DNA of 64,000 bases from positions 310,001 to 374,000 of the forward strand of contig CDROCS010000852.1 of NCBI GenBank assembly GCA_977020255.1. The letters are read 5' to 3'. The position numbers were made by a program, and so were the translations under genes. The notes beneath the pieces were generated by a model. That model had not been told where the DNA came from and ran no database searches. It worked only from the letters and a program-made list of their open reading frames with translations. How positions within the stretch are numbered: position 1 is the stretch's first letter; the number at the start of each line of letters is the position of its first letter. Source of the stretch: Obrimoposthia wandeli (taxonomy: Eukaryota). Shown piece after piece: positions 6,060 to 40,460 of the stretch.

Positions 6060-6140
6060 TAAATATTTAATAAAATGTTGTTATTGTTATAAACATGTAC
6101 TTATTCTGATATATTTATTTTATATTAATATTTATATATA

Positions 6141-6770: not shown

Positions 6771-6790
6771 TAATAATGTTTTAAAATAAA

Positions 6791-7204
6791 ATGAATTTTA
6801 AAAAGAGTATTCTTAAACATAGTAAAAGGACAGATAAAGATGAAGTTAAAAAATTAATAAACACTGTATTATATGATCGTAATAATATTGAATTTTCAAA
6901 AAGTTTACCTTATTTTAAAACCTTAATTGACGTACCAAAAACGAATAAAATGAAAATGTTGAAATCATTTCCAATTTATGTAGTTGATGATTTAATAAAA
7001 ATTTTAAATAAAATAATTTATGGTAAAATTAAACCTGATGATAATATTTTAAAATATAAAAATTCATTAATAAATTTAGCAAATTCACGTGGTAAAATTA
7101 ATAAAAGAAACATTATTTATAATCAAAATGGCGGTTTCATATTGGCCCTACTGCCCGCTATAGCATCAGCAATAGCTAGTGTTATATCTTCAAGATGGGG
7201 ATAG
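6791..7204 (+). CDS. Basic putative virion core protein with C-terminal QNGG|F amphipathic tail
   Basis: Lys-rich 137 aa ending NQNGGFILALLPAIASAIASVISS. Homologue at 28383-28730 ends KQNGGFIGPVILVVASII. This position between ATPase and integrase is common in Polintons. Confidence 0.7.
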   Translation: MNFKKSILKHSKRTDKDEVKKLINTVLYDRNNIEFSKSLPYFKTLIDVPKTNKMKMLKSFPIYVVDDLIKILNKIIYGKIKPDDNILKYKNSLINLANSRGKINKRNIIYNQNGGFILALLPAIASAIASVISSRWG

Positions 7205-7303
7205 TTGTCTTAATAACGAAAATTATAATAATATTAAATAATTACATTCTTTCGTTTTATACAAACATATAAACAGTTTAAAATATATTTAACTTTTATA
7301 ATA

Positions 7304-7477
7304 ATGGGGATAAACAATACAAAGTTGTCTAACTTAATTATAAATTTTAATTCTTCATGCTGCAATGGAAAAGATTTGGAACAATCCAGAAGATCCAGAC
7401 GGTTATACAGGGTTAGAAAAATTGACAAAAAGAGTCAAACAATCAAAAACAAACACACAAAAATGGTTAAGAAATGA
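7304..7477 (+). CDS. 57-aa MG...CC ORF overlapping the integrase start in another frame
   Basis: MGINNTKLSNLIINFNSSCCNGKDLEQSRRSRRLYRVRKIDKK... is below the ORF-track cutoff. Homologue MGANPSLPKFKFSFYSNCCNGEDMVQ... at 28759-28977. Confidence 0.65.
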   Translation: MGINNTKLSNLIINFNSSCCNGKDLEQSRRSRRLYRVRKIDKKSQTIKNKHTKMVKK

Positions 7478-8391
7478 ATTATCATATAGTCTGAATAAAC
7501 CTTTAAGACGTAAATTCCCTACTAGATCATATAAAACTAATGGTATTAATTCGTTATGGCAGATGGATTTAATGGAAATGATTCCTTATTCTTCAGTAAA
7601 TAACGGATTCAAGTATATTTTAACTTGTATTGATGTATTTAGTCGTTTTGCAAGGGCAGTTGGTGTTAAATCAAAATCAGGTATTGATTTATTACATGCA
7701 ATAGAATCTTTAATTGTTGATGATGTACCAGTAAATATTCAAACCGATGAAGGTAAAGAATTTTTTAATTCACATGTTAAGAAATTATTTAAAACTGAAA
7801 ATATCAATCATTATTCAGTATATTCTCAATATAAAGCTGCAGTAGTTGAAAGATTTAATAGAACGTTAAGAGAACGGTTAAAGAAATATTTTACTAAACA
7901 AGGTAATAAGAAATGGGTGAATGTATTACCAAAAATTATTTATGCTTATAATAATTCTAAACATAGAGGTTTAGATGGTTTAAAACCTGTAGATGTAAAT
8001 AATAAAAATGAATTTGATATTTTGTTGAAACAAAATCTAAAAAGAAAAGAAAGTTAAATCTAAATATAAAATTGATGATTATGTTCGAATATCAAAAATA
8101 AGTACAAGTCCATTTATTAAAAATTTTAATCAAAATTGGAGTGATGAGGTTTTTCAAATTCATGATATTAATTATAAACAAAATCCAATAATGTATATTT
8201 TAAAAGATATTGATAACGTCATCATCAAAGGAAAATTTTATAAACAAGAGTTACAATTAATTGATAAACCTAAACTATATCGAATACAAGAAATTTTAGA
8301 AACTAAAGGTCGTGGTAAGAATAAACAATATTACGTAAAGTGGCACGGATACTCTGAACCTTCTTGGATATTTGCTTCTCAAATTGAATAA
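7365..8391 (+). CDS. Retroviral-type DDE integrase with C-terminal chromodomain; +1 frame break at 8041-8057
   Basis: WQMDL, IQTDEG and VERFNRT form the DDE triad. The +1 frame from 8053 reads VKSKYKIDDYVRISK...NWSDEVF...FYKQELQ...YRIQEIL...YYVKWHGY (chromodomain). Confidence 0.92.
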
Positions 8392-9404
8392 TGTCAAAAT
8401 ATATTATTTTACCTAGTAATAGTTGTCCAAGTACTCAACCTAACAATACAGCCAATCAATTTACTGTAGATTGGGAAAACTCTCTAAATTTAGATGGTGA
8501 ATGGGAGGTTGCCTTGACTGAATTTGTATTTAATTATACTCCTTTAACAATACAAACTAATTCAAAAATACTTTATAAAACGGAAAAGATAGAAATGAAA
8601 ACTTTCGATGTATCTTTTGCAATTTTAAATGGATTAATTTTTAATAATTTAAATACTGTTTTCAATTTCAAAATTACAAAGGATCAAAAATTAGAAATAA
8701 GTACAATTAACAGTATTCATCGAATGTTGTTAAAATTCGAAACTTTAGAAGAATCAAAAATTATAGGTTTTAATGAAATACAAAAAATTTCTAGTCATGT
8801 TATAACAAGTGATGAAATTGTTGACATAAATAAAAATATTCATGCTAAAATGAGAATTACAATTTATTATTTAGCTGAATATGAATACGAAATAAAATTT
8901 AATCAAAATTATTTGATACAAGATAGTTCTTCATTATGTAATATTATAGCCAGTAAATGTAATGAAATTTTTAAAAGCTGTAATATAGATTCAGACGGAT
9001 TATTTGATATTTTATTAAAGAAAAATGTAAAATCAGTTTTATTTGACGAAAAACTTGCATCTTTATTAGGTTTTAATAATGTTTTCTTTGAGAAACGAAT
9101 TAAAGGTTTTCAAAAACCAACACTTTCTAGCTCATATAATCAAATGTATATTTATACTAGTTTAACAGATTCTGTCTTAGTAGGATCTGATTATGTTCCA
9201 CTGTTAAAGTCTATTTGGTTAAAATCATTAAAATATCGATATGGAGATGTAGTAAATGTTAAAATTGATAATCCAATGTACTTGAAAATGAGAGATTCAA
9301 GTATTAATAGAATCGAGGTAAATATACGTGATGATTCTGGTAATTTAATTCCATTTTCATATGGAGCAAAAACTAGTTTAACTCTTCATTTACGTAAAGT
9401 ATAA
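8391..9404 (+). CDS. Minor capsid (penton-like) protein
   Basis: Polinton mCP pattern: N-terminal LPSNS...NTANQF...L.G.WEVALTE and C-terminal MYIYTSL...LVG...VPLLK...PMY...INRIEVNIRDDSG..IPF..G...LTLHLR. Confidence 0.8.
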   Translation: MSKYIILPSNSCPSTQPNNTANQFTVDWENSLNLDGEWEVALTEFVFNYTPLTIQTNSKILYKTEKIEMKTFDVSFAILNGLIFNNLNTVFNFKITKDQKLEISTINSIHRMLLKFETLEESKIIGFNEIQKISSHVITSDEIVDINKNIHAKMRITIYYLAEYEYEIKFNQNYLIQDSSSLCNIIASKCNEIFKSCNIDSDGLFDILLKKNVKSVLFDEKLASLLGFNNVFFEKRIKGFQKPTLSSSYNQMYIYTSLTDSVLVGSDYVPLLKSIWLKSLKYRYGDVVNVKIDNPMYLKMRDSSINRIEVNIRDDSGNLIPFSYGAKTSLTLHLRKV

Positions 9405-9441
9405 ACAATATAAATATATTTAAAATATAAATATATATAAA

Positions 9442-9845
9442 ATGAATACATCAATTATAAAATTTTATAGCAAAAGTCAACAGGGCGGTGAACTTCCCTA
9501 TTTCATTGGTAAACAATATGGATCTGGTTGGTATCAAACTATTTCTAGATTAGCTATTCCATTTATTAAAAAGTTGGTTTATCAGCAGCTACAAGTGCTG
9601 CCAATGTAATTGGTGAAACGGTAGGAACTGCGTTAACAAATCCAAAAAACATAATTTCATCTCTCAAAGAAAATACAATCAAAGAAGTCAAAACTTTGAT
9701 TCCAAAATTAAAAAATAATGCTGTTGAGAGTTTAAATAAAGTCGCAAATTGTGTTGAACAAAATGGAAAGGGTCTTAAACGTAAAAGAAATAATTTAAAT
9801 AGTATAAACAAACGTCTTAAAGGTACTATTTTCCAAAATGACTAG
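9442..9845 (+). pseudogene. Putative protease-cleaved membrane-lytic/core protein upstream of MCP; 1-nt frameshift at ~9570
   Basis: MNTSIIKFYSKSQQGGELPYFIGKQYGSGWYQTISRLAIPFIK, continuing in the -1 frame as KVGLSAATSAANVIGE...QNGKGLKRKR...IFQND. The break lies in an A5 run (A6 restores the frame). Confidence 0.65.
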
Positions 9846-11058
9846 TATAAAATCTGAATTGTGTATTTTCGATAGACCACTACCTCAAGTAGTGATTGAA
9901 AATTCAAGTTTTGAAGAAATATTTCCAATCAATTCAATTACTGGAAAAAATTTAAATGACATAGAATTTAATATTCATGCATCTGAAGAAGATTATCTGG
10001 ATTTGAATGATACTTTGTTAAATATTAAATTAAAAGTTGTAAATGAAGATGGTACTGATTTAATGAAAGATAGCGATGTAACTCCAGAGAATTACATGTT
10101 TCAAACTTTGTTTAGAGATGTTATTCTAACACTTAATAATGTAAAGGTTGAAGGAGGAAATGGAACGTATACTCATAAGGCTATATTCGATACTCTTTTG
10201 AATTTTAGTAGTGATACCAAGTATACTAACCTTGAATGTTCCGGGTATGATGATGATGCAGAAAATCGTAAACAATGGATTAGTGAATCTAAAATATTTT
10301 CATTGTGTAATTCAATTAGATTAGATTTCTTTGATCAACCAAAATATTTGATTCCAGGGATTAATGTTCATTTGAGATTTATGAGAAATCAGCATAATTT
10401 TTCGCTCTATTCAGAAACTTCAAAACCAATTATTCAAATTCTAGATGCTAGATTGTATGTTAGAAGAGTAAAAGTTGATTCTTCAGTAATGATTGGACAT
10501 CAGTTAGGTTTGCAAAGTCAGAATGCAGTTTACCCAATTAGAAAAACTCAGTTAGTAACATATTCAATTCCTCAGGGTTCTTTGGAACTTAATAAAGATC
10601 AAATATTCGGAGACTATCGTTTACCCAAGTTCATTTTGATTGCTTTCAAAGATACACCTCAGGGTGGTAAGGAATACAAAGTTAAATCTTCTACGTTCAA
10701 TACATTTAATGTTTCAACAATATCATTAGCTAGAAATACAGATTATCGAGAAACTTATAATCTAGATAATAACAATTTTTCATTAGCATATATGCAGTCA
10801 ATTATTCGAAATATGAATATTTTAGATAAAAACGTGAATAATGGTATCAGATTTTCTGATTTTAAATCAGGAAGTTCGATTTTCACTTTTCTATTAGCAC
10901 CAGATTTTGATATAAACACTACTCAAGTGCCTAAAACTGGTAATTTAAGACTTGAAATTAGATTTAATTCTCCTTTGACCGTTCCAACAAGTGTTTTGAT
11001 TTACGGAATATTTGATTCCGAAATTCAGATTACGAAAAATAAAACTGTGATTGTATGA
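9838..11058 (+). CDS. Major capsid protein (double jelly-roll, Polinton PY/hexon-like), intact 406 aa
   Basis: SELCIFD.P..QVVIE...EEIFPINS, IEF.I...E.DYLDLNDT, FFDQPKYLIPG, A.YPI, LPKFILIAF and GNLRLEIRF..PL motifs typical of Polinton MCP. Confidence 0.9.
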   Translation: MTSIKSELCIFDRPLPQVVIENSSFEEIFPINSITGKNLNDIEFNIHASEEDYLDLNDTLLNIKLKVVNEDGTDLMKDSDVTPENYMFQTLFRDVILTLNNVKVEGGNGTYTHKAIFDTLLNFSSDTKYTNLECSGYDDDAENRKQWISESKIFSLCNSIRLDFFDQPKYLIPGINVHLRFMRNQHNFSLYSETSKPIIQILDARLYVRRVKVDSSVMIGHQLGLQSQNAVYPIRKTQLVTYSIPQGSLELNKDQIFGDYRLPKFILIAFKDTPQGGKEYKVKSSTFNTFNVSTISLARNTDYRETYNLDNNNFSLAYMQSIIRNMNILDKNVNNGIRFSDFKSGSSIFTFLLAPDFDINTTQVPKTGNLRLEIRFNSPLTVPTSVLIYGIFDSEIQITKNKTVIV

Positions 11059-11431
11059 AGTAAGCTTATTGTATATTATATTCTTTATTTAAATTAGTAC
11101 TTTAGAAATTCATAAATCCGGAAAAATATTATTGAATAACAAATTTAATGGAGTATATTCATTGGATAAAATTCCATCATTAAAACCCGGAGGTTACATT
11201 ATCAATACTCATACTTCAAATCTACCAGGCGAACATTGGATAGCAATATTCGTTGACAGATTCGAGATTCGAGTGTTTGATCCTTTTGGATTCTATTATC
11301 CTGCAAAGTTGGTGTCTACACTTGAAAAAGAAAACATTCCAGTCTACTATAATCGAGTTAAATGTCAGAATCCATTAACTAAAAACTGCGGACCTCTGAG
11401 TCTTTTATGGTTGAAACTTCAACACAAATAA
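11055..11431 (+). CDS. Adenain-like cysteine protease with a predicted 38-nt intron (11060-11097)
   Basis: Spliced product MNTLEIHK...GVYSLDKIP...INTHTSNLPGEHW...FDPFG...CQ.....CG has the catalytic His, Asp and Cys. The ATG overlaps the MCP stop (ATGA). Confidence 0.85.
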
Positions 11432-11898
11432 TTTTAAGTATAAACAAATATATCATTATAGATTTTCATTTTATTTTTTCAAATGGCTTTTATATGAATG
11501 TTTTATTGATAATAATGGAGAATATATTCTTGTCTTGTTCATTTCATTACGTGTTTAAAAATCAAATACCATGGAGTAGTTTATCATTTACAGTTAAAAG
11601 AAAAAATCTATATTTGATAAATCATCATCATCAGTTATCCTGGTTTGAAGGTGAAAGCTCTGATATTCATATTGATGATGTTGAAACAATATTCTATGTT
11701 ATGGATTCTATTGATGGAAAGAAAATTAATTTAGTGAAACGAATGTTTCCAAATTTGAGAATTGTGAATTATAATAAAAGTTTCAAAAATTTAAAGAAAA
11801 TGCCAAAAAATATTCGATGTCCGTTTAGAAAACACGGAAAACATTGTGCTTATTTGAAATGTTTTTCTCTATGTATTGATTATGTAAATTGTATATAA
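11407..11898 (+). CDS. Accessory protein resembling a DEDD/Maelstrom-like nuclease-fold ORF seen in invertebrate Polintons
   Basis: IIIDFH...FK..IPWSSLS...KRKN.YL..HHHQLSWFEG...CPFRKHGKHCA pattern, recalled from Polinton accessory ORFs and not verified. Confidence 0.45.
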   Translation: MVETSTQIILSINKYIIIDFHFIFSNGFYMNVLLIIMENIFLSCSFHYVFKNQIPWSSLSFTVKRKNLYLINHHHQLSWFEGESSDIHIDDVETIFYVMDSIDGKKINLVKRMFPNLRIVNYNKSFKNLKKMPKNIRCPFRKHGKHCAYLKCFSLCIDYVNCI

Positions 11899-11951
11899 AT
11901 ATATTTATTAAGGATATTTTATTTTAATATATAATTTATGTTATTTAAATA

Positions 11952-12705
11952 AATTTTACCATAATTCTTTAGATGTGTAAGCCTGGAAAAACTTTGATCT
12001 TAATTTTCACATAGAATAGTATGTGTGTGATTACGTAATACATTCTTAACTGATAAGAGTGAACTTTAGTCTAAATTTTCACATAGAATAGTGTGTGTAT
12101 GATTACGTCATACATTCCTTAACTGATAAGAGTGAACTTTATCCTAAATTTTCATTATGGACTAGATCACAAAAAGAAGGGTGGAGACTAAGCCACTTGA
12201 CTCTTTGAATTAGTGGTTAGCCAAAAAGAAGGGTGGAGACTAGACCACAAAAAGAAGGGTGGAAACTAAGCCACTTGACTCTTTGAATTAGTGGTTAGCC
12301 AAAAAGAAGGTGGAGACTAGACCACAAAAAGAAGGGTGGAGACTAGATCACAAAAAGAAGGGTGGAGACTAGATCACAAAAAGAAGGGTGGAGACTAAGC
12401 CACTTGACCCTTTCATAGTGGTATATCACAAAAAGAAGGGTGGAGACTAAGCCACTTGACCCTTTCATAGTGGTATATCTCAAAAAGAAGGGTGGAGACT
12501 AAGCCACTTGACCCTTTCATAGTGGTATATCACAAAAAGAAGGGTGGAGACTAAGCCACTTGACCCTTTAATCTATGGACGACCATAGTGGTATATCAAA
12601 GAAGGATGGAGTCTAAGCCACTTGACCCCCCCTAAAGGGTGTCACACCATAAGGGTATATGTTGCCTCACCTCCGGTGGGGGGGGTCAAGTGGCTTCTAC
12701 CTACT
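11952..12705 (-). repeat. Right terminal inverted repeat of Polinton A
   Basis: Mirrors 998-1710. About six full and several truncated GGGTGGAGACTAAGCCACTTGAC units, plus an extra ~73-bp tandem duplication near 12000-12148. Confidence 0.95.
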
Positions 12706-25879: not shown

Positions 25880-26260
25880 GCTTCACTCAAAATATCCATT
25901 GAGACGTATTGAAATATTCCATAGTTCTTCATCTAAAATTGGAGCAATCAAATATTATAGATCATCTCTAAAAGCCAGACTGGGATCAGTTTCAAGCTGG
26001 AAAGAATTTCCTTCATATACATAAACGGGTATGTAAAATCCCAAATTTTTTTTCAATTGATCAATATCTGATGTTGTTAAATTTTGATGAGATATTTATT
26101 CTCTACTTTTGATATTTTCACAGGATTCATAACTCGTATAATTTGATGCCTCTTTAATATATTACATAGTTTTCCTTTTAAAAATCTTTCTTTATATAAA
26201 AAATTTCCTATATATCTCAGGAGAGGATCCATTCTAAAATAAACATACTGTTTTAAAAAA
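25880..26260 (-). pseudogene. Polinton B ORFan B (degenerate)
   Basis: MDPLLRY...IRVMNPVKISK...[35 protein letters not shown] second copy lies at ~61750-62030. Confidence 0.5.
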
Positions 26261-26411
26261 GAATGTTTATAAAAAATACATATAAGATACAAATATTATG
26301 AAAAAATAAAACTGATTATTAATTGCCAAATGAAAGAAACATAGTAAAAATGAATCAAACCGATTATAATTTATTACATGTAAAATAAAAGAAAAAAGTT
26401 AAAACATAGTT

Positions 26412-26861
26412 TCACATAGGTAACTTTGTTCCAATTTCATCTTTCTTGTAACCATAAAGTCGAATTTTTACAGTCCATTGCTTCTTTTTCGGAAACGCAT
26501 CAACATATATTTCTCTTCCATAGTAATCTAGAAATGCGGCATCAGCTCCTTGGATATAAAATATGTTCTTTTTGAAAATAAACTTTGGAACTGCCTTTTC
26601 AACTTTCTGTATTAGATATTGAAAACTTGGTTTTTGAATATTTGATAGATAATAGCTGAACTTTCTTCTTTCAATTGTCACAGGATTTACTAAAGCAATC
26701 AGTTGAGCCTTCTTCAAGAATCTGACTTTGTATTTGAAATATTGTTTCCCTTCTTCATACATATCCTTATCCGATTCTTCAAACATTTCTAAATCTTCAT
26801 CACGGATTAATATCTGTTGGCTATCGTTCACCATTGATACTTGTCTTTGATATGAATGCAT
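26412..26861 (-). CDS. Polinton B ORFan A (149 aa), paralogue of the degenerate ORFan B at ~25880-26260
   Basis: Open 149 aa. Shares VNPV.I, AF.D..G..I and W...IRLxGY with ORFan B. Confidence 0.5.
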   Translation of the reverse strand: MHSYQRQVSMVNDSQQILIRDEDLEMFEESDKDMYEEGKQYFKYKVRFLKKAQLIALVNPVTIERRKFSYYLSNIQKPSFQYLIQKVEKAVPKFIFKKNIFYIQGADAAFLDYYGREIYVDAFPKKKQWTVKIRLYGYKKDEIGTKLPM

Positions 26862-27126
26862 TTATTATGATTTGTCCTTCAATGACGCATGCTTTATCCA
26901 ATTATAATTTTATACTAATTTATAACAAGGAGACATGAATCCCATTGGTTAATATACTAAAGCATTGAATTTGAGTTGATTAAATCCATATTAAAAATCG
27001 AAATTGATTGGAAGAAATATATTATCCAATTATAATAGATTTGCAAGATATTTACAAGAAATGTGCAATAAAAAAGCAGATTCAGACATGCATAAAGAAG
27101 CATTTACAGAAGACAATTTTATTCCA

Positions 27127-27378
27127 ATGAAACTCGTAAATATAAAATATAAAGGAAGAATAGAATATAATATTTTGTACTTATCATTCAATGAATGGAA
27201 GCCAAGACAATATGGGAAAAGGTTTGATAATTTCACAGTTGTTATTTTTTCCTCAGGTTAATTTTTATTTTATTTTTCATATTGAATTCTTTTAGGATTG
27301 AAAAATTTTGATGATCCAGACATTGTTGATTTGATTTTAGAAAACATATCTTATTACATCTTGTTATCTTTTCTATAA
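27127..27378 (+). pseudogene. TBP-like gene of Polinton B (shortened or interrupted)
   Basis: MKLVNIKYKG...KPRQY...DNFTVVIFSSG aligns to family A MLTNINYKG...RPEQY...KDYTILIF. Downstream ILLGLKNFDD matches VILGLRNLD. A 39-nt GT-AG segment (27257-27295) lies between. Confidence 0.6.
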
Positions 27379-27406
27379 ACAAACCCGTTTAAACTTATTG
27401 TTTTGA

Positions 27407-27679
27407 ATGAATAATACTATAAATAGAGACAATGAAGTGGATCGGCTTGCCGACGAAATATTTTCTGGAAAGATTAGGTGTAAAGAAATTTTATCAGAAT
27501 TAAAAAATAATGATATAACAAGAGATAACATTGAAATATTGGTTAGATCACACGTTATTCGAGAATTTAGAAATCGTACACAAATAAATAAAATTATAGC
27601 CAAATATTCATTAATTAATTTTTGTATTTCATCTACAATAGCTCTAACATTGTACATTTCAATAAGGAAACTTCTATGA
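27407..27679 (+). CDS. 90-aa ORFan with hydrophobic C-terminus
   Basis: Open frame ending YSLINFCISSTIALTLYISIRKLL; no recognisable family. Confidence 0.4.
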   Translation: MNNTINRDNEVDRLADEIFSGKIRCKEILSELKNNDITRDNIEILVRSHVIREFRNRTQINKIIAKYSLINFCISSTIALTLYISIRKLL

Positions 27680-27699
27680 TAATATAAACAATATTAAAA

Positions 27700-28200
27700 A
27701 TGAAAGAGTATATGCAATGGAGCCAAATAATAACCAAAACAAAAATTTGCAAGTTGAAGGGAATAACATATATTGAAGGATTTGATGCAACTTGGTGTGA
27801 AAAATTGAAAAAAGAAGATGTAATAATAATTGATGATTTGTATCAGGAAGCTAACAAGGAATCGGTCTTTAATAATTTATTTACAAAGATTGTAAGAAAT
27901 CGTGAAGTTACAGTTATATTTATCACTCGAAATCTTTTTCACAAAGGAGGTCACCATAGAACAAGAAATCTTAATGTACATTACTTAGTTTTATTTTAAA
28001 ATCCTATAGATCAAACAATTGTTAATTTCGTGGCCAGACAGGCATTTCCCCAAAATAAGAACTTTCTAGTTGATTCATTCCATGATGCTGCTAAACAAGC
28101 ACATGGGTATATATTTATTTACTTTAACAAGCTTGTCCAGATGATTTAAGTGTTTTAACCGACATATTTAATTCTAAGGGAGTAACTGTTTATAAACAAA
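27700..28200 (+). pseudogene. Packaging ATPase of Polinton B, 5'-deleted and frameshifted
   Basis: VIIIDDLYQEANKES...[14 protein letters not shown] is nearly identical to the family A ATPase; Walker A is missing. Confidence 0.9.
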
Positions 28201-28382
28201 TAGAGAACAATCATAAAAGATAAATTTATAATGCCTTTTAAGAAGTTGATAGTAAAACGTAAAACAAAGCCTAATAAATCAAAAAAAGAATCATTAAGAA
28301 AAAAGAAGTGAAAAAATTAATCAAATCTGTAGTTAGAAATAAAAAAAAACTTGAATGGCTTCAAATATAAACAATATTCAAA

Positions 28383-28730
28383 TTGAACCTTTTTATTAAA
28401 ATGAAGAAAATACAAAGAAGCATACCCTATTTTAAAGCTTTAGTCAAAGCCTCTTCTCAAAAGAAAATGATTATTCTTAAAGGATTTCCATTTTTTATTG
28501 CAGATGATTTATTGGAAGTTTTGTATAATATAGTTTTGGGTCGAGTAAAAGTTAGAAATCGGAAAAATATATTAAAGAAATATAGAAAAACTCTTCTAGA
28601 TATTGCTAATGTAAAAAGTAAAAAAAGGAAACGAAATATTATTCTTAAACAGAATGGTGGTTTCATAGGGCCTGTTATTTTAGTAGTTGCTTCAATTATC
28701 ATTAGTATTATAGCTGCGACACGATCATAA
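28383..28730 (+). CDS. Basic core protein homologue (QNGG|F tail), Polinton B
   Basis: SIPYFKALV...GFPFFIADDLLEVL...KQNGGFIG aligns with 6791-7204. Confidence 0.75.
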   Translation: MNLFIKMKKIQRSIPYFKALVKASSQKKMIILKGFPFFIADDLLEVLYNIVLGRVKVRNRKNILKKYRKTLLDIANVKSKKRKRNIILKQNGGFIGPVILVVASIIISIIAATRS

Positions 28731-28758
28731 ACAATTATTTATAAAATCAGCTAAAGAT

Positions 28759-28977
28759 ATGGGTGCTAACCCTTCTTTACCTAAATTTAAATTTTCTTTC
28801 TATTCAAATTGTTGTAATGGAGAAGATATGGTTCAACCCAAAAGATCCAATTGGCTACACAGGAGTTTCAAAATTAGCAAAAAGAACAAAACAAAATTAC
28901 AAGAAAACGCAGAAATGGCTGAGCGACCAGTTAGCCTACAGTCTGAACAAGCCGATGAGAAGAAGGTTTCCAACTAG
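28759..28977 (+). CDS. MG...CC overprinted ORF, Polinton B
   Basis: Homologue of 7304-7477 with the same overlap geometry around the integrase ATG (28817). Confidence 0.6.
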   Translation: MGANPSLPKFKFSFYSNCCNGEDMVQPKRSNWLHRSFKISKKNKTKLQENAEMAERPVSLQSEQADEKKVSN

Positions 28978-29846
28978 AACTTACAAAACCAGCGGTCCTA
29001 ATAATTTATGGCAAATGGATTTGATGGAGATGATCCCATATTCTTCCATTAATAAGGGATATCGATATATTTTAACATGTATTGATGTATTTAGCAGGTT
29101 TGCTCGTGCAATTCCAGTTAAAGCAAAGTCTTCAATAGCTATGCTTGAAGCCATTAAAGAAATATTAAAAGAGGACATTCCACAAAATGTGCAAACTGAT
29201 TTAGGAAAAGAATTTTATAATAAGCAAGTTAAATCTTTATTTAAACAAAATAATATAAATCACTACTCTGTGTTTTCACAGTATAAAGCAGCAGTAGTAG
29301 AAAGATTTAATCGTACTTTAAGAGATAGAATAAAAATGTATTTCACAAAAGAAGGAAATAAAAAATGGATCCAAGTTTTGTCTAAAATAATACATGCATA
29401 TAATCACTCTGAACATAGAAGTCTCAAGGGAATGAGACCTGTTGATGTTACTAATAAATACTCTATGGATATTTGGTTAGACAGGAATAAAAAAGAAAAT
29501 ATTAAAAAAAGTTAAATATAAGAAAAACGAATATGTTCGAATTTCTAAAATTAGCTCTACTTCATTTATTAAAAATTTTTATCCGAATTGGAGCGATGAA
29601 ATATTTTGTATAAGTAAAATTGATCAAAAGAATAATCCAATAATGTATACTATTAAAGATGCTGACAATAATATCGTTCACGGTAAATTTTACGAGCAAG
29701 AACTACAAGTAATATCAAATAAACCTAGCGTTTTCCGTATTCAAAAAATATTAAAATCTAAGGGTACCGGTAAACATAAACAATACTTTGTTAAATGGCA
29801 TGGTTATTCATACCCAACTTGGTTATCAGCATCTAATATAATATGA
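28817..29846 (+). CDS. Integrase-chromodomain of Polinton B; +1 frame break at 29504-29515
   Basis: MEKIWFNPKDP...WQMDL...VQTDLG...VERFNRT. The +1 frame from 29511 reads VKYKKNEYVRISK...YFVKWHGY. Confidence 0.88.
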
Positions 29847-31000
29847 AGTCTATGTATATGATTTTATATAGTAACAGATGCCCGAAGACTCGACAAAATA
29901 ATGACGCTAGTAGCTTTATTATCGATTGGAAATCTCCAAGGAAAATGGGAAGCGGCTTTAACATAATTTTCTTTTTATTATTCTCCAATTACTATCAGAA
30001 AAAAACTCACATATTTCGTTTACAAAAGAATTTAATCATGAAAAAACAACTGAAGTTGTGATAGGGTTTGATAGTAAAAGAAAATTCTATTACAATTGTA
30101 TAGATAAAGAAGTGAAAGTAATATATGAAAATAACAAAGTAAGATTTAAAAATAGATTAAAATATATTTAACTTATTCAATTGACATTTGAATCTTTAAT
30201 AAAAGCTCTTCAATTCGGTTTTGGTTGTTTTGAATGAATGATACTTTGCTTTATGTTCAAATAAAAGTATTAAATCGGGATGGTACTAATTTAGAGGAAA
30301 AGGCCGATGTAACACCTGTAAATTATCTCTTTTATTTTTTTATTTAGTGATGCCATTGTTACTCTTAATAATGTCAAAATTGAAGGTGGAAATTCTTCCT
30401 ATGCTCATAAAGCTTTGATTGAAAGTATATTGAATTATCGTACTGATACTCAAAATACTAATTAGGCAACCATTGGTTATCATAAAACGGCTGCAACTCG
30501 CAAAGAATGGATTGAAAAATCTAAACCTTACGAAATGTGTGGGTCTATGAGATTGAATTTCTTTGAACAACCGAAATATTTAATTCCCTGTGCTAATGTA
30601 CATCTTCGTTTGAAACGTAATAAATGGAATTTTTATTTGATAAGCACAGACTTCTAAAACCTAGACTTGATATTTTGGATGCAAAATTATATGTTCGAAG
30701 AGTTAAAACCGAGCAATCAGTTTTAATGCCACATAATATAGGAATGGAAAAAAACAATGTTTGTTATCCTATCAGAGAAACTAAACTTATAACCTTCTCT
30801 TTAGGTACGGGTACACAAGCTTTTAATAAGGATCAAATTTTGGTGATGTAAGATTACCGAAATTCGTTTTAATTTCTTTTCAAAAAACAGCAAAGCTTCT
30901 AGGAAATTATACAACAGATGTAACTCAATTTGACAATCTTAATGTAGGTTCAGTGACACTTTCAAGAAATATTGATTATCGTGAAACATATAAAACAAAT
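29843..31000 (+). pseudogene. Fragments of minor and major capsid genes, Polinton B
   Basis: MKSMYMILYSNRCP (mCP start), VLNRDGTNL..., FFEQPKYLIP, ILDAKLYVRRVK and CYPIRET align to the family A mCP and MCP; many stops and deletions. Confidence 0.8.
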
Positions 31001-31251
31001 TTCGAAGATAACTTTTTAAACATTTTTTTATTTTAATTATTTTTAAAAACACTACAAAATTAAAATATAAGGGCAAAATAATAAAAAACATAAGACATAA
31101 GAAAATTTTATATACATTTAATAAACAAAATATCACAACGAGATCTGTCAGCAAAGATAAGGCCCAACCTAAAAAAGTATCGAAATAACAAAAAAGTTAG
31201 AGTCAAGGTTCCAAATTAAAAAAAAAATTAAAATTAAAACCGTTTAAATTC

Positions 31252-32320
31252 AAAAGTGTTCATAAGCCAGTCTAACGTTCTTTTCTACACAAAAGCGCTT
31301 GTCGTCATTTCTACTCAAAACAATTTTGTTGTATTATTGGAATGCAGATGGGCGCTTGGAATAAATCTAGTTTGCTCAACGTTTTCAATACACATCATAA
31401 ACTTTCCGATAGGTCTCATGTGTAAGATTGTTTCTTCCCACACCCTTTGCTCTAATTTATTAATAGATGTGTATTATTATGTACATGTATTATTAGATGC
31501 ATGAAAACTATAGAATTTAGTACGTAGGAAAATACAATCATCATACGAAACGTGACCTTCGCTTTCATCCTTAAATTCCCCGATAATATCCTTTAAACTC
31601 ATAGAGTGTAGATTATGACTAACGGGACATGTATGGGTATCAATTAAGTTGTCCCTAAACATTGCCGATAATAATTGATTATCTAAACTAACATTCCTAC
31701 ATTCTAAAAAGAAAGAATCAGTGTCCCCAACTGCGATTTTGATCTCACATTTGAATTCGTGGCGATATTTCTCTAATTCTATATATTGGAGCTCGTACAT
31801 TCTGAGTTTAGAAATGTCTAAAACCGTTTGACCTATATATCGAGACATATACTCAGTTTTCCAAATAACACTGCTACCAGGTCATCTGCAATTGTAAAAC
31901 TACGGTTGAAGTTGTACTTGCTAATATATGCTATTAGTTTACGCTCATCATTGCAAAACCGTAGACAAATACGTTTTTGCAAGTCCTCTATAGATTTTCC
32001 AAAGAGACTATTACTTTTTAACTTGTAAAAATCCCAATCGAATTTGCTAGTGGCCAAATTACGTTTTCTAGAATTCTTCCCAATATAGTCTTTAAACACA
32101 AAGTTTTGACTAAAGCTTATACCACGATGAATTCGAGTGATTTTCGTTCCCAACTTTAAGTAGAATTGAAGAAGCCGCAAAATGCGCCACATAATTCAAC
32201 TTGTCTTCATGTGTTAACAATAATTTCTTAACCTTTGAATTAATTGGACATTAATAAACATGTGCTACTGAAAGATCATCTAATTTATCATGCACATTGG
32301 GAGGGATTTTTAAATCATAT
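31252..32320 (-). pseudogene. pPolB C-terminal half (distinct from the family A and C polymerases)
   Basis: YDLKIPPNVHDKLDDL, YKLKSNSLFGK, YIGQTVLDISKLRMYE, VGDTDS, GEFKDE and DDKR in broken frames. Confidence 0.9.
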
Positions 32321-33740
32321 TATCTCTTCACCTTTCACGTTCCATTGTTAACATAAGTAGGTAGATGTGTACAGTTCCCGCCGTCCCCCCTAGCGAAAAC
32401 CGAAAAAAAATCCGCAAATTTCAAAAACATACTATAATACTTCTTTTTTCTAAGGTCAATGTGGAAAGTAGGTCAAATTTTGTTATAGTACACATGATTT
32501 TTGAGGGTTAAATTCATATTTATGTCACTTTATACTATAATACGTCTGTTATTAGGTGATTTTGGTCTAAATTTACATGTTTTTGTTTAAACACATCAAT
32601 TTGTATGCGTGCAAATTTAAAAACATACTATAACACGTATATTTTTCAAGATAATTATTAATGAAGGTCACATTTTGTTATAGTACGCATGATTTTGAGG
32701 GTTAAATTCATATTTATATCACTTTAGACTATAATATGTCTGTTTTTTAGGTGATTTTACTCTGAATGTATATGTTTTTTCTTAAACACATCAATTTGTA
32801 TGCGTGCAAATTTAAAAACATACGATAACACGTATATTTTTTCAAGATAATTATTAATGAAGGTCACATTTTGTTATAGTACACATGATTTTGAGGCTTA
32901 AATTCATAAGTAGATCATTATGTGTTGTATTACGTCTGTTTTACTCTAAATGTATATGTTTTTGTTTAAACACATCAATTTTTAACCACGCAAATTTAAA
33001 AACATGCTATAATACGACTATTTTGAAGATCATTATCAGATGTGTGTCTTTTAAATCACATCACCCTATCCCTCCATATTTCACACAAAGTGAGATGTAT
33101 TCTTATGTTAGAAACATTTTATTAATATCAAAAAGACAAATCAAAATATGTAATAATATAGACATAAATCAACAGATGAAGAATATAATAAAAATATGAT
33201 ACAAATACGACAAAAATATACAATAAATAATCATTCATTCATAATATACTCATCCGGATGAAGATAATGACCATATGCGACTGACCGATTCTTTTCAACC
33301 CATTTTCGCTTATCATCCGCACTACACAATGCTATTTTAGATAAATGCATAGTATATAGCTGATGATTAACGGACGTTATACGACTTTGTTGAACACGCT
33401 TACTTATACCTGTCTCATAAACAGCTAAGTAATTCTCGTGTTTTAAATTACTCTGTTTAAGATTAATTCTCTTTGCTCTCATATGTGATTCATCATTGAT
33501 AGTTTTTAGGCCATAACATTTTGGACGAAGAAATATACATTCCGTATAAGTACAAATATCCTTACTTTCATCCTTAAACTTTGCCCAGGCGTAAGTGTTT
33601 GCATAACTTCCGCTGCATGTCTCTTATACCAAGGCAAAACAACTGTCTTTACCAGCATTTCCAGCTTGGGAAGAAAATCAACAACACAGGTTTCACCAGT
33701 GAAAAGCGAGTAATCTTGAGTGTATCCTGTTGCAGCAATT

Positions 33741-34083
33741 ATATTACTAAAAATAGAAGGACAAATAACATGTTTAAAGGTTTTAACCCTTAAAGGTCAG
33801 ACCCTGGGGATTAACCTTCAAAGAACCATCTGCAAAGTTCAATGGGCGATCTTATAGTTAAGACCACATGTCAATACGATCTTTAGATTTAAAGATATTC
33901 AAGTTTGAAAATATATTACTAAAAATAGAAGAAAAAATAACATGTTTGAAGGTTTTAACCCTTAAAGGTCAGACCCTTAAAGACTCTGAGGATTAACCTT
34001 CAAAGAACCATCTGCAAAGTTCAATGGGCTATCCTATCGTTAAGTCTGCATGTCAATACGACCTTTAGATAAAAAGTTATTCA
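33741..34083. repeat. Two diverged ~172-bp direct repeats at the centre of the fold-back
   Basis: ATATTACTAAAAATAGAAG...AAAGAACCATCTGCAAAGTTCAATGGG...TGTCAATACGA starts at 33741 and again at 33913. Confidence 0.85.
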
Positions 34084-36841
34084 GGATATTTTTAAGAATC
34101 CTTTTATTGATATATTATATCGAACCACCAATCCTGGCGGCAATCCTGTTAATCTGATTCTGTTAGAAGAAGGAGAGAAATATCACTACGTTGCAGTTCC
34201 AAATCTTAATAGGCTTCTAAACTATTATAACAAAGAAGAAGGTTCTACACGAATTCGATGTATATGGTGTCATAAATGTCTTCATGGATTTAGACGGGCA
34301 ATAAGTTTTGAGAAGCATAAACCTCTTTGTATGATGAATATGGAACATAATACACTATACCAGATGCCGGAGGACAAATATATTCAATTCACAGATTTTT
34401 CAAAATCGATTTCTCCACCATTTGTTGTTTACGGGGATTTTGAATCAGTTCTCCCACCCCATGGTATTCATCATCAAATTCATCTCCCGATTGCAGCCGG
34501 TATGTTAATGTCTCCAATTGCTGCAACAGGATTACTCATGATTACTCCTTTTCAATGGTGAATATTGTGTTGTTGATTTTCTTTCCAAGCTGGAAATGCT
34601 AGTAAAGACAGTTGTTTTGCCTTGGTATAAGATACATGCTGCGGAAGTTATGCAAACACTTACATCTGGGCAAATAGCTAGTTTTAAATCGGCTACTAGT
34701 TGTTACCTCTGTAATAAGACATGCATTAAAAAGGTACGAGACCATGATCATATGATGGGTAAGTACCTTGGAGCTGCTCACAGTAAGTGCAATTTATCTA
34801 GACGAGTAAATCGTACTCTCCCAGTGGTGTTTCATAACCTGAGAGGGTATGATCTCCATCAGATTCTCAAACATGCGCTGAGCAACTTTTCTGACTGGAA
34901 TGTCTCTGTTATACCTCAATCAACAGAGAAATTCCAAGCAATGATAGTGCGTATTGGAGGAGTTTGTATTCGATTCATCGATTCATTGTAGTTTTTGAAT
35001 AGTAGTCTTGAAAAACTCATAGAAAACTTAGTTTCCATTCCATTGACACATTCTGTTTTTCAACCTCATCTTGTGAATGGTAAAGGGATATTTCCATATG
35101 ATATGGCGGTATCAGAGAGTGCTCTCCGATCAATAACAAGCCTTCCACCAAAATGGGATGAGAAGATCAAAAGTGAACAATATGAGTTGGTGGAGAAAGT
35201 CTGGCACGAGAGTGGGTGTGAATCTCTTTGGGACTATATGTTGGTATATCTCAAAATGGATGTATATCTACTTGCGGATGTGTTTACAACATTTCGAGAG
35301 AAGGCTATCGCCGATTATGGATTGGAACCACTCAATTTCTTCTCTATCCCAGGTTAGATATTATTATTATTATTTTTCATTATTTAATTTTACATAGGTT
35401 TAACATTTGCAAGCGCTTTCAAGTCATTACTGGGTACTGAGTCAAGCGCAGAAAAACCGAGGGTTCCAGGCGGATCTACTGTGGAATTGATTCAAGATCC
35501 TGAGATGCATCGACTGTTTGAAGAAGGTATTCGTGGAGGAATGACCTTTGTGAACGAACATAAGATTACTAACTCTGATGATGATACTATTTTGTATATT
35601 GATGTTAACAATCTTTTTGGATGGGCTATGTCCCAATTTTTACCGGTTGGAGATTTTATCTGGGTAACTGACCGATTGCAATTAGAAGTAATAATTCATG
35701 AGCTCTCATATAAGGATCTAAGCTGTAGTGATTATGCTAATTTAATGGAAGTAGATATAAGTATTCCGAATGAATTGCATGATAAACTTGACGATCTTCC
35801 CTTAGCTCCACGTAAGGATTGCCCGCCTGGAAGTCGTACTTCTAAATTACTTTTAACTCATTATCCAAAGAAGCATTACACTGTCCATTCTCGTTTGCTT
35901 CAAATGTATCTGAGGCTTGGGGCTAAAATAGATTTCTTGCATAGAGCAATTCGGTTTGCACAAACCAATGTTTTTGCAAAGTATATAGAAGACAATTCAA
36001 CAAAAAGGGCTGCTGCTACTAATGATTTTGAACGAGATTATTATAAGCTGAAAGTTAATTCGCTATTCGGAAAATTGATTGAGAATTTGAAAAGCGAATT
36101 AATTTAAGGATTTGTAATACGTCTCAAAAACTTGTTACTTATTGTAGTAAGGCACAATTTCAACGCACTATAGAAATAGATTCTGATCTAATAACTGTTT
36201 TACTGAATAAAGATGATTTGTTTGGATATAGTTATATGGGCCAGGCAGTACTAGATCTTAGCAAATTGCGAATGTATGAGCTCCAGTACGTGCAACTTGA
36301 GAAATATCGTCAGAAATTTAGTTGTGATATTAGAATTGTTGCTGGGGATACTAACAGTTTCTTCTTGAAATGTAGAAATGTGGATGTAGAAGCACAATTG
36401 CTACCAGCAATGGTTTCTGATGGATTATTAGATACATCTAAGTATCCTAAAAATCACCCTCTTTATTCAACAGCTAACACTGCGATAGGAAAGTTTAAGG
36501 ATGAAAGTAAGGGTATTTGTATTTATACGGAATGTATATTTCTTCGTCCAAAATGTTATAGCCTAAAAACTATCAATGATGAATCACATATGAGAGCAAA
36601 GGGAATTAATCTTAAACAGAGTAATTTAAAACACGAGAATTACTTAGCTGTTTATGAGACAGGTATAAGTAAGCGTGTTCAACAAAGTCGTATAACGTCC
36701 GTTAATCATCAGCTATATACTATGCATTTATCTAAAATAGCATTGTGTAGTGCGGATGATAAGCGAAAATGGGTTGAAAAGAATCGGTCAGTCGCATATG
36801 GTCATTATCTTCATCCGGATGAGTATATTATGAATGAATGA
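34080..36841 (+). pseudogene. pPolB of Polinton C with a predicted 45-nt intron (35353-35397), a nonsense codon (34989-34991) and frameshifts
   Basis: VYGDFES, CYLC..DHDH, FHNLRGYD, YLKMDV, GIRGG, YIDVNNLFG, KVNSLFGK, AGDTNS, GKFKDE and DDKR. Splicing gives FSIPG|LTFASAFK, matching family A FSIPGLSWASALK. Confidence 0.92.
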
Positions 36842-37536
36842 TTATTTATTGTATATTTTTGTCGTATTTGTATCATATTTTTATTATATTCTTCATCTGT
36901 TGGTTTATGTCTATATTATTACATATTTTGATTTGTCTTTTTGATATTAATAAAATGTTTCTAACATAAGAATACATCTCACTTTGTGTGAAATATGGAG
37001 GGATAGGGTGATGTGATTCAAAAGACACACATCTGATAATTATCTTGAAAAATATACGTGTTATAGTATGTTTTTAAATTTGCACGCATACAAATTGATG
37101 TGTTTAAGCAAAAAGATATACATTCAGAGTAAAATCACCTAAAAAACAGACATATTATAGTCTAAAGTGATATAAATATGAATTTAACCCTCAAAATCAT
37201 GTGTACTATAACAAAATGTGACCTTCATTAATAATTATCTTGAAAAATATACGTGTTATCGTATGTTTTTAAATTTGCACGCATACAAATTGATGTGTTT
37301 AAACAAAAACATGTAAATTTAGACCAAAATCACCTAATAACAGACGTATTATAGTATAAAGTGACATAAATATGAATTTAACCCTCAAAAATCATGTGTA
37401 CTATAACAAAATTTGACCTACTTTTCACATTGACCTTAGAAAAAAGAAGTATTATAGTATGTTTTTGAAATTTGCGTTTGTTTTTTTTTCGGTTTTCGCT
37501 AGGGGGGGTGGCCGGAACTGTACACATCTATCTACT

Positions 37537-40460
37537 TATGTTAACAATGGAACGTGAAAGGTGAAGAGATATAGGTGAAGGAATGTATGAACTCCCTGAA
37601 AGATATATCATGTCAGTGAACTTTTCATAACAAAGCTAACATCGTGAATTCTAACTAGAGTCCACCCACTACTTAATACTATAATTAGCAATTTTTTCAT
37701 CTTAATTTCTTCAAATTTCAGGTACAAAATTATCATTGAAAGCAGTTGGCTTATGTGAAATTACCCAGGTTTTAGACTCCTCATTGACATTTTTAAACTG
37801 TACTGTTGCGCAAAATTGAACCTTAGACTAACCTAATTTAGTCACTTCAGATTTTAAAAGACTTTCAATATTTGAATCTACACCAACGTTTAATAAACCT
37901 TTCTCTTAATGGCACCTTAACTATAGCGTATTTTTTATTTAGGTTTTCCCTAACTTTCTTTAGTGGGACTTAATAAGGAATTTGGCTTCGCCTCTTTCTT
38001 CTTACAGTCGCTGACAAACCTCCCCCTAATTGAATGGGAAGATAACTATTTATATTAAAAAATCCATTTGTTGATGGTGCTGCTGAAATTGATGCAATCG
38101 CGGCTCATGTAGAAGGTGCTTCTGAGGCAACTAATGGTGATGCCGCAGATGACGAGACTATAGCGCTTGTAGAGGCTGACTCCACTCGGTATCCTGTAGC
38201 TGATGTCGTTGAAGATGAAGCTGACATTAGTGAGAGTGTTAGGATTAGGTTTTGAGTAATTTTAAATAATTAATTGATTTTATATTAAAATAAAAATCCT
38301 TGGAAGCAAGGTTATATTTAAAATAAAATTCATATTAAAATTAAATTGTTAAAATTAAGAAGGGAATTAAAATATTTAGGACCACGAAGGTCATGTATAG
38401 TGTGTGAGTATTTAAGGGATTTTAATCTTTACCAAAAGGCCCGAAAAAAGAAGAAGTTATTTACGAAAAATAGAAATCAAATTAGGAAAGAAGATTAATT
38501 AAGAAATAAATCAAGGTAAGAAACATTAGCACTTAGCTAAATTAATTTTCTTCCTTACAGATAGCAGCGGAATTAATCCATTAGCCGTAAGTGGGAGCCA
38601 AGCAGCCATTAGACTGGGAACCGGACAGCCGACAATTACCCAGCCCAAAGTAGGTGCACTTAGTTAAAGTGCTAGTAAATTTACTTAGTTCCATTAAGGA
38701 AAGTCGCGGGGAAGATTACTCACTCGCCTGATATAAAAGAGAGAACATTAAATTGAAAAACGCACAAATCGGCTGGCTCAAAAAAGAAATTAAAGGAGAC
38801 CTTAAATTCAGAATTCATAAATTGTAAGACTCGTGATAAAATCCGAGCATTAACAAAAACCAATTCAGAAGTGCAGCAGCAGTATCAAAATTAAGTGATA
38901 AATTGGAAACTTGAGATACAAAATCGTCTGACTGAAAATTCGGAAAAAGAATATCTTGACAATCGAGAACAGACGAGGAAACAGATTCGACAAAAGTAAG
39001 TGAAGCGCGCAGCCGGAAAGGAACGCTCTAAAAACAGACGTGCAGGATCACAGACGCCAATTCAAACTGCCACCTAAAACGAAGCTAGGTCGGGGAGCGC
39101 AATTCGAGATACAGACGAAACCAAGGAAGGAACCCGCTGACCGAGCCTAGGTGATCGATCTCGGAGCGAGCCGTACGGAACCAAGGAAGGACATGAGGAC
39201 GAGCAGACCGATTCGGATAAGAGGTAGAAACGTGAACATAAATTGAAATTTTGTGAATTATAATCTGAATATTTTGATAAAGACTAAAGTGAACAGAAAC
39301 TGAAATTTTGTGAATTATAACCTGAATATTTTGATAAAGACTATAGAGAACGGAAACCGAAATTTATACCGTGAATAAACTCATTTCCTATTTTAGAGCA
39401 ACCTGCTCTCTAAAATCAATTCATATTTTAAAGCAACCAGCTTTCTAAAGTCAACCCCTATTTTTAGAGTAAAGACTCTAGTAACTAAACAACCCTAAAA
39501 TAAAATCGATACGTGGATCATCCCTACTTGTTAGAGAATTGTGCAACATAACTAGAATTGTGTAGTTGTTTTTAGAACGTATTTAACGTAAAGTTGTGTG
39601 TTTAGAAATAAAGATTTCCTACAGTAAACCGTGTTGTACCAAACCGAACCCTTACCAGCGAGTAGTTGTTAACTACTCTACAGACAACACCACACTAAGG
39701 GAACTTTGTAGTAACCACATACACAGCTCTTCACACATTTCACCACACCTAACCTTAGTAAACCTTCAGATACAAATTGAGATAGGCAAGCATAACACAA
39801 GTAGGCCACAAACATCTACAAGTCCTGCTTCTATAGAACTCACGTTGGGGCCCTCCGTCTGAGGATCTATATTAAAAACAGTTTCATATAGAAACCCCAA
39901 CAAGAGGATGATCGGGTAGCGGCTGTTGTGGAGGCCGAAGATGCATCTGCTAAAAGAAATATATTAAAAAAATAATTTATTTTAAAATTTTTACTTCTAA
40001 GGCGTGCAAACATCGATGTAGGAGGCATGGCTACCACAGTCGACGACGGTAACGCCTGTCTCAAGGAAATTCCTGATTAAAATAAAAAATATTAAATAAA
40101 TCCTATGTCATATTAATTAACAATTTAAAAAATGATAAGAAAAAAAACCTAATGAAGGCAATGAAACTGTAGCTTGTGGGAAGTCCTCTTCATTGACAGC
40201 ATCCATCCAGCTGTCGTCTGTTAACTCGACAAAATCAGATTACTCGATATCGTCCAGCCAGCTGTTGTCGCTCCACTGAGGCTGCTCCATCTAAAAATCT
40301 GACTGGGATATATTTCTACCCAGTCATTGTTCGAGAGTTGGGTTGCTGGCGCCAAGTCCTCAAAATCTTCTTGGGATATATTTTTATTATTAAGAAGTAA
40401 ATGAAGCATATAGACCAGCAGAAGTTGAATACCATTAGCAGGTAGAACCGTTAATTGTAA
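37537..40460 (-). pseudogene. N-terminal region of a Polinton pPolB, interrupted by a solo LTR
   Basis: Minus strand reads RRKRRSQI...KVQFCATVQFKNVNEESKTWVISHK...SGWTLVRIH...SGSSYIPSPISLHLSRSIVNI, aligning with family A SRKRK...KIQYIIRMRFEKNDGETKEWYASHR...GSGWKL...IKSPNSLTKSKAVINI. The upstream S/A/T-rich part and the 40460 limit are approximate. Confidence 0.75.
38237..39902 (+). mobile_element. Solo-LTR-like element (1666 bp) with 4-bp TSD AGAG
   Basis: TGTTAGG...CCCCAACA termini; AGAG at 38233-38236 and 39903-39906. Removing it rejoins the S/A/T-rich coding-like sequence. Confidence 0.8.

Follow-up and report, generated by a model that had tools for sequence, protein, structure and literature searches.

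A probable relic of a two-lobed TBP-like gene in a decayed animal Polinton, and a putative late-gene switch among its intact relatives

A short gene at 27127-27378 raises two questions: whether a Polinton that carries about one lobe of a TATA-binding protein (TBP) encodes a half-sized factor or has lost the remainder, and what a TBP-like gene does in such an element. The window, by which we mean the whole 64,000-nt stretch of DNA analysed, is AT-rich animal DNA in which exons of host Macoilin (16.6-22.7 kb, plus strand) and Wnt (52.3-52.9 kb, minus strand) genes can be read. Element A (1071-12608, ~11.5 kb), delimited by inverted repeats, Pfam and tblastn, is a Polinton bounded by terminal inverted repeats (TIRs) with arms at ~1071-1673 and 11985-12608. 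It carries pPolB, TBP-like, ATPase, PX-like, integrase, chromodomain, penton-like, capsid and adenain genes. Its membership among Polintons follows from the Pfam matches DNA_pol_B_2, rve, Pox_A32 and a weak Peptidase_C5, corresponding to pPolB, integrase, ATPase and adenain; Pfam gives no capsid, which was assigned from position and from tblastn to the metagenome loci L015 and L021. The pPolB of element A carries a frameshift and a stop. Element B (about 25.6-31.0 kb), recognized by homology to the genes of A, is a decayed second Polinton that keeps an integrase plus ATPase and capsid fragments; no pPolB of its own was assigned, and no inverted-repeat pair bounds it among the longest 25 of 59 pairs. 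Element C (31.2-37.9 kb) comprises fragments of a third Polinton's polymerase, similar to the pPolB of A.

The B gene opens with an ATG at 27127 and reads through LVNIKYKG, KPRQY and FTVVIFSSG in frame; in-frame stops follow at 27259-27261 and 27283-27285, then LLGLKNFD in the same frame and a TAA at 27376-27378. These motifs, the stops and a 39-nt segment at 27257-27295 lie where the preliminary description had located them. That description had staked its case on a similarity to the intact gene of element A (5520-5960), and this similarity is significant at profile level. Direct tblastn of protein A against the window gave a marginal match (E 0.015, 14/39 identical, or 36% over 39 aa), and Pfam does not detect the B pieces. 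A profile of A and 16 homologues (148 positions) scored 27133-27261 at 25.9 bits on model positions 2-44, against 8.0 bits for the best unrelated six-frame match in the window, and a 64-row profile gave this N-terminal piece 27.9 bits. The surviving 5' part (27127-27258, plus strand) spans the first lobe up to the Gly after the conserved Ile-Phe; it matches loci L007-L012 at 34-46%, and its closest relative among 165 proteins is P0079, with 55% identity over 44 aa. The surviving 3' end (27295-27378, plus strand), which would comprise the last helix of the second lobe and the stop, does not reach significance by itself (1.7 bits in the scan of the window, model positions 122-146); it is nevertheless collinear, and other copies, which match from 27295 on, share its DNA. 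Judged from these comparisons, the B copy is homologous to the family-A TBP-like protein. Model positions 45-121 (~77) are missing whichever way 27257-27295 is read, so that about one lobe's worth remains, as had been noted; with this gap and two in-frame stops, the copy has no complete two-lobed core.

The gene had also been described as occupying the same position as in A. It does again lie upstream of the ATPase; however, a 90-aa ORF with a hydrophobic C-terminus (27407-27679, plus strand) stands between the two in B and is absent from A. Pfam gives no convincing match for this ORF, which has weak homologues after the TBP-like gene in L009 and L011 (pairwise E 3e-5 and 0.005), and L011 repeats the B order of TBP-like gene, small membrane ORF and ATPase. 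Divergent from the B gene lies a 149-aa ORF (26412-26861, minus strand) with weak homologues upstream of the TBP-like gene in L008, L009 and L012; it received no Pfam assignment, and the protein atlas gave only leads that scored below 0.8. This ORF belongs with L008, L009 665-1015 and L012 2021-2389 in an unannotated family of 115-150 aa found beside the TBP-like gene. Downstream, a TATAAAC box and a decayed packaging ATPase occupy 27683-28199 (plus strand); the ATPase matches that of A at 65% from residue 55 on, with its P-loop region missing, ~137 nt absent at 27733 according to contig X5-27 and loose contig ends, and a stop at 27997. The rest of element B (28191-31012, plus strand), assigned by Pfam, tblastn and the box scan, holds boxes at 28191 and 28366, a small basic ORF, a PX-like ORF, an open integrase, a chromodomain and fragments of the penton-like and major capsid genes.

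What became of the B copy can be read from contigs of its relatives. Contigs of four public runs were aligned to 26000-31300; X1-X3 represent one sample and X5 a second study, the first study being possibly the window's source. The element-B family is highly repeated, and the window copy differs from the other copies at 391 listed places. In X2, 39 contigs (agreement 0.98) diverge directly before 27295, and their letters read in frame as the last strand of the second lobe; the divergence before 27295 appears as a row of loose ends in at least one of the four runs. An 839-nt contig of the second study, X5-27, matches 27295-27733 at ~98% and continues with 80 unmatched letters beyond 27295; at 27733 it carries, with a 3-nt overlap, the ~137 nt that the window lacks. 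Further loose ends lie at 26413, 30235 and 30651. The contigs are short, none spans the whole B gene, and no full-length family-B copy is among them. The preliminary description had found the GKxxILG strand imperfectly restored in B under either of its readings; it is this last strand of the second lobe that the other copies carry before 27295.

The loss of this strand, together with the other losses in the B copy, indicates an internally and multiply deleted relic. Very probably, 27127-27378 is what remains of a two-lobed gene that lost the end of its first lobe and most of its second in one internal deletion, and it would encode no working protein. Family B as such most likely encodes a two-lobed TBP, to judge from the in-frame strand in other copies. 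B-specific protein searches returned no candidate for the N-terminal region and four for the C-terminal region, none of them scoring, and a degenerate DNA pattern for B matched none of the viral contigs.

The preliminary description had offered a choice between a micro-intron that yields a half-TBP and a deleted, decayed copy. Deletion and decay are very probable; the alternatives are nevertheless not exclusive, as the segment may also be a real intron. A spliced one-lobe protein of ~70 aa, encoded by a family-B subfamily and working as a dimer or inhibitor, is very unlikely. In its favour, the splice-like ends of the segment lie at the borders of the homologous stretches, the segment is covered by many contigs, and the start, the stop and the downstream box are preserved in the B copy. 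The missing positions 45-121 nevertheless include an invariant Met and three conserved DNA-face positions, other copies have second-lobe sequence at this very place, and the B copy is decayed in its ATPase and capsid genes as well.

The 39-nt segment (27257-27295, plus strand) merits separate treatment. It runs GT..AG, is 87% AT, contains both stops and, from its sequence and contig cover, is a candidate phase-1 micro-intron with a deletion junction at one end. Its donor and acceptor context, T-rich body and split Gly codon are those of a GT-AG intron. The segment is not private to the window, since 42-53 contigs per run (X1-X3) cover 27273, with one base fewer and 66-76% of the depth there. 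It cannot encode the family's invariant residues in any frame, and the window contains no second copy of it or template for it. A segment of like make-up, 45 nt long and also GT..AG, lies in the pPolB gene of element C (35353-35397, plus strand), where it splits a Gly codon. By sequence and tblastn its flanks are collinear with the pPolB of A without loss, whereas those of 27257-27295 are not collinear with intronless homologues, ~77 model positions being missing. The C segment is likely a true micro-intron. A splice-like pattern, written after both segments had been seen, found only these two in the window (mean in shuffles 0.01); being post hoc, this result speaks for the specificity of the pattern, not for its significance. 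The pattern matched 4 of 131 loci, none of them Polinton loci.

We lean, by a little, towards reading 27257-27295 as a short spliceosomal intron of some family-B lineage, whose splicing we infer from these features. Three arrangements fit the segment: an intron at the lobe-1 Gly with the deletion at the intron's 3' end, one at the lobe-2 Gly with the deletion at the intron's 5' end, and filler in a deleted subfamily. That a deletion should stop right at the border of an intron would be a coincidence explicable only by short microhomology. An intron of 38-39 nt lies near the lower size limit for animals, and three host introns read by eye span ~190-1100 nt. X5 has no contig cover at 27273, and no joint that skips the segment occurs among the best 15 of 925 joints; neither was counted as evidence.

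It is possible, if somewhat less probable, that the segment in the relic is not an intron. The 39 nt would then have arisen as filler, or as scrambled AT-rich sequence, where the deletion was joined, and a deleted, non-autonomous subfamily would have spread them, intact B copies having no intron, as in all relatives. A subfamily would fit the contig depth in X1, where summed cover is 263k at 27273 vs 1004k at 27345, or about one quarter, and none of the 13 translated locus genes is interrupted here. Core genes of intact vertebrate and nematode Mavericks are, moreover, described as intronless in passages of PMC8097293 and 10.1101/2022.07.12.499685. Filler would leave without explanation, however, the donor- and acceptor-like ends exactly where homology stops and resumes; the window offers no template from which it could have been copied, and the similar segment of element C is a clean insertion with collinear flanks. 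Introns are on record elsewhere in these elements, in that parts of two reports describe introner sequences in dinoflagellate maverick-polinton-like proviruses (PMC11957031) and cargo genes with introns in nematode Mavericks (10.1101/2022.07.12.499685); the candidate 39- and 45-nt introns differ from what these passages report in lying in the TBP-like gene and pPolB of an animal element. Candidate micro-introns in core genes also mean that ORF-based surveys may wrongly call such elements dead.

Whether the TBP-like gene is a lineage character or a one-off capture was approached through relatives of protein A. Among 23 candidates, 16 are homologues at 43-53%, all with PF00352 and 14 of them covering at least 95% of the query; a profile search returned 52 representatives at E<=1e-30, and at least 80 of 368 confirmed stretches of a metagenome scan were kept. 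Homologues of other element-A genes accompany the TBP-like gene in eight of the 15 best metagenome loci; these are ATPase and integrase in L011 and L012, a capsid or protease gene in L014, L015 and L021, and only the terminal unknown ORF in L016-L018, L014 and L015 being near-identical. L008 and L009 hold weak homologues of B's neighbours, and the five other best loci are 1.0-1.6 kb long and without marker. None of the other 71 metagenome loci gave Polinton matches, a further 45 loci contained no member of the TBP-like family (best 12.2 bits), and no Polinton of this lineage came up when viral contigs were scanned with TBP, ATPase and integrase as queries. In five loci the TBP-like gene comes after the last morphogenesis-side ORF, and in one it lies opposite the protease and capsid genes. 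Since the gene follows the terminal unknown ORF in L014-L018, a place beside the ATPase is not constant in the lineage.

In a quick tree of 101 rows, 82 rows, comprising the family and more distant proteins, are split from 19 cellular-type rows by a long branch (SH-aLRT 100); rows were labelled by their sequence features, the tree excludes B, fragments and giant-virus TBPs, and the second half of P0166 is aberrant. We set aside the taxa that the atlas gives for the TBP-like clusters, as 1-9 records underlie them. All seven intact gene pairs have dN/dS of 0.14-0.29, with dS near saturation. The A-B comparison that the preliminary description had proposed gave 0.70 on 38 codons, which is uninformative for the B piece, and the four pairs including that piece range from 0.28 to 0.70 on ~40 codons. 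The distribution of the family, its single branch and the low dN/dS of its intact pairs point to an old, inherited and selected gene. The earlier view of a lineage-conserved gene thus gains from the 16 close homologues, the 52 representatives, the Polinton neighbours in 8 of 15 best loci, the one branch and the dN/dS values.

It is extremely improbable that A and B took a host TBP independently or recently, and that their similarity does not reflect a shared viral gene. The gene varies in position among loci, and A and B agree at only 36% in this protein, whereas their ATPase and integrase share 65-70%. Yet the B piece resembles other members of the family more than it resembles A, has family-specific positions and is missed by the Pfam TBP model, and the family stands on one long branch away from cellular-type TBPs. 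Taken on sequence evidence, this is a widespread family of ~146-aa two-lobed Polinton TBP-like proteins, under purifying selection and separate from cellular TBPs.

A set of 29 tree rows (P0095-P0162) consists of distant TBP-like proteins of 150-220 aa that share the Phe-to-Pro and Thr-to-Met changes described below and keep a longer lobe-1 linker. The Polinton locus L021 groups with this set, which may represent intermediates of reduction.

The intact family-A gene (5520-5960, plus strand) encodes 146 aa with a Pfam TBP match of E 2.5e-12 (PF00352, 46.9 bits against a cut-off of 22.9). Its model (pLDDT 93.6) is a two-lobed saddle whose first lobe has no helices, and Foldseek places it at TM ~0.75 to solved TBPs and at TM ~0.7-0.79 to cellular TBPs, with E down to 9e-10. 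The protein shares with cellular TBP (PF00352) this saddle, a second lobe that matches by sequence, three Phe and the lobe-2 acids; it differs in its length of ~146 aa, its predicted helix-free lobe 1, a linker shorter by ~13 residues and its separate long branch. Across 53 family rows, the first of the four Phe that kink DNA is Pro in 52, and the other three are retained (in 53, 52 and 52 rows). The lobe-1 Thr is Met and the lobe-2 Asn is Ser or Thr in all 53, so that the canonical Phe/Asn/Thr set is broken. The Glu pair of the lobe-2 stirrup is kept in 50 and 52 rows respectively, with Asp at the first position in A. The lobe-1 linker has a median of 20 residues vs 33-34 in 15 cellular-type rows, and the protein starts directly with the first strand, leaving no Pol II-binding N-terminal domain. 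The roles of these positions are those of general TBP biology, in which the lobe-2 stirrup acids contact TFIIB. Read in this way, the residue pattern suggests that the TFIIB face is retained, that the TFIIA/TAF1/Mot1 face is lost and that base reading may be altered in one half-site.

A candidate target for such a factor, the TATAAAC box, was tested on elements A and B and 13 loci (51,320 nt, ORFs of at least 50 aa), L014 being left out as a duplicate and L020 for its partial gene. Of 46 TATAAAC sites, 23 lie 28-45 nt before the first ATG of an ORF, a range picked after the boxes had first been seen; the pooled figure for 104 permutations is 3.2%, the best control having 6 sites. In the same range fall 2 of 56 TATAAAA, 5 of 47 TATAAAT and none of 18 TATAAAG sites. 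Raw TATAAAC counts are not clearly enriched (A, 11 vs 6.7 expected, sd 2.9; B, 6 vs 3.3); only their position is. The box stands ahead of the ATPase, PX-like, small basic and capsid genes in A, B, L011 and L012, and element B keeps four such boxes. One of them (27374-27380, plus strand) overlaps the stop codon of the B TBP-like gene, 33 nt before the next ATG, and the same overlap occurs in L012. Exceptions are the penton-like gene of A and the small membrane ORFs of L009 and L011, which have no box, and two A genes with a box at 53-55 nt. None of the 14 TBP-like genes has the box at 28-45 nt; one has it at 77 nt, and six have a non-C TATA at 33-47 nt. With these exceptions, the box precedes structural genes and not the gene of the factor itself, the arrangement of a herpes-type mimic, as an association in a comparison made up of TBP-bearing Polintons, in which box and gene co-occur.

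Two further features accompany the boxes. Tyr-Lys-Gln is the invariant C-terminus of the ATPase, and its codons contain the TATAAAC box of the gene that follows, a case of dual coding (6753 and 28191 in the window, 1819 in L011, 4987 in L012). A small ORF that begins Met-Gly overlaps the integrase start in another frame (7304 and 28759 in the window, 2475 in L011, 5592 in L012) and lies behind TATAAAC or CATAAAC; its product is possibly a myristoylated virion peptide.

These observations are compatible with a model in which the TBP-like gene would be transcribed early from an ordinary host-type promoter, its product would bind the TATAAAC box that lies 30-45 nt ahead of morphogenesis genes such as those for ATPase and capsid, and the conserved second lobe would recruit host TFIIB and Pol II, thereby switching on late genes. 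The intact family probably acts as such a late-gene switch, its DNA binding, TFIIB contact and timing being deduced from residues and box positions. A relic in B, a possible intron and a late switch in the intact family together form what we regard, with fair confidence, as the best explanation overall. More tentative is the full proposal that a minimal TBP with a helix-free first lobe runs the early-to-late switch of animal Polintons via TATAAAC, borrowing host TFIIB and Pol II, and that the switch gene of family B gained a micro-intron.

The loss of the first Phe and of both lobe-1 helices could instead mean that the protein acts as a decoy or repressor, by competing with host TBP or sequestering TFIIB, TATAAAC then being a host-TBP promoter variant common to Polintons. 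The box is one base from the canonical TATA box, and among the A and B ORFs a Pfam scan turned up no gene for transcription, TFIIB and polymerase included, and no herpes-type partner activator. This alternative seems less likely, as the final C is specific (23/46 TATAAAC sites in range, against 2/56, 5/47 and 0/18 for the A, T and G variants), the TBP-like genes themselves avoid TATAAAC, 6 of 14 having a non-C TATA instead, and the DNA-face substitutions are fixed in the family and not random.

The late-switch reading has viral counterparts. Giant viruses mostly encode their own RNA polymerase. TBP-like proteins of these viruses (Nucleocytoviricota) have the same fold and include the best viral structural match (a Heterosigma akashiwo virus protein, E 3e-8), although at 8-20% identity. 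Closer in circumstance are the TBP mimics of beta- and gammaherpesviruses (KSHV ORF24, EBV BcRF1), which parts of PMC7498053 present as belonging to viruses without an RNA polymerase of their own, whose late transcription depends on host Pol II; BcRF1 appears in our fold search (E 6.7e-4). These mimics are large, multidomain members of a six-protein complex with a Pol II-binding N-terminal domain, whereas the Polinton protein is a bare short core without identified partners. In the open-access literature, with subscription papers and bioRxiv supplements outside the scope, we found no study of this TBP-like family or of the TATAAAC box. The only precedent in print that we found for a Polinton TBP is a figure-legend label in Starrett et al. 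2021 (PMC8502044; 10.1101/697771), where the map of a MELD virus with an adintovirus-like PolB marks a gene as 'similar to TATA binding proteins'; the legend leaves open whether that virus and its gene belong with the Polinton family, the accompanying passages say nothing of the distribution, residues or promoters of such a gene, and the one supplement of PMC8502044 consulted has no TBP or TATA match. The parts consulted of PMC11161782 contain no TBP passage and those of 10.64898/2026.10.13.758929 no TBP or TATA passage, while two 'tata' matches in those of PMC12220804 gave no TATA-box passage.

The findings bear on the expression of Polinton capsid genes and on the existence of a regulated viral phase in these elements. 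If the proposal is correct, the system would be a pared-down equivalent of the late complex of herpesviruses and would indicate that virions are made in a regulated phase, and the family-B micro-intron would tie the switch to host splicing. With a conserved, element-encoded TBP and a defined box, the question comes down to a single small, soluble protein and a motif of 7 bases; the same protein also lends itself to asking how much of the TBP saddle is dispensable. The B gene at 27127-27378, itself only a relic, has its value as a second, distant witness in the same genome.

Several minor observations concern the elements themselves. An alternative genetic code was considered for the window and rejected, as the ORFs of element A are open under the standard code. 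The TIRs of A (1071-1673 and 11985-12608) hold arrays of tandem units of 52, 26 and 78 nt. Upstream of its pPolB, a 280-aa frame at 4659-5501 (minus strand) is probably the N-terminal part of that polymerase, offset by a short tandem duplication near 4700-4730, and the true start of the gene may be spliced. At 61430-62643 lies a third B-like remnant, in which the left part of B is fused directly to the ATPase region; the TBP-like region is absent, and the remnant is uninformative on that gene. Elements B and C sit between the 3' ends of the host Macoilin and Wnt genes. Within C, the region 32321-37571 contains large inverted arms, 96-99% complementary (33021-33582 with 36490-37051, and 32403-32841 with 37048-37486), which duplicate the polymerase 3' end and a 195-nt repeat array and represent a recent fold-back rearrangement.
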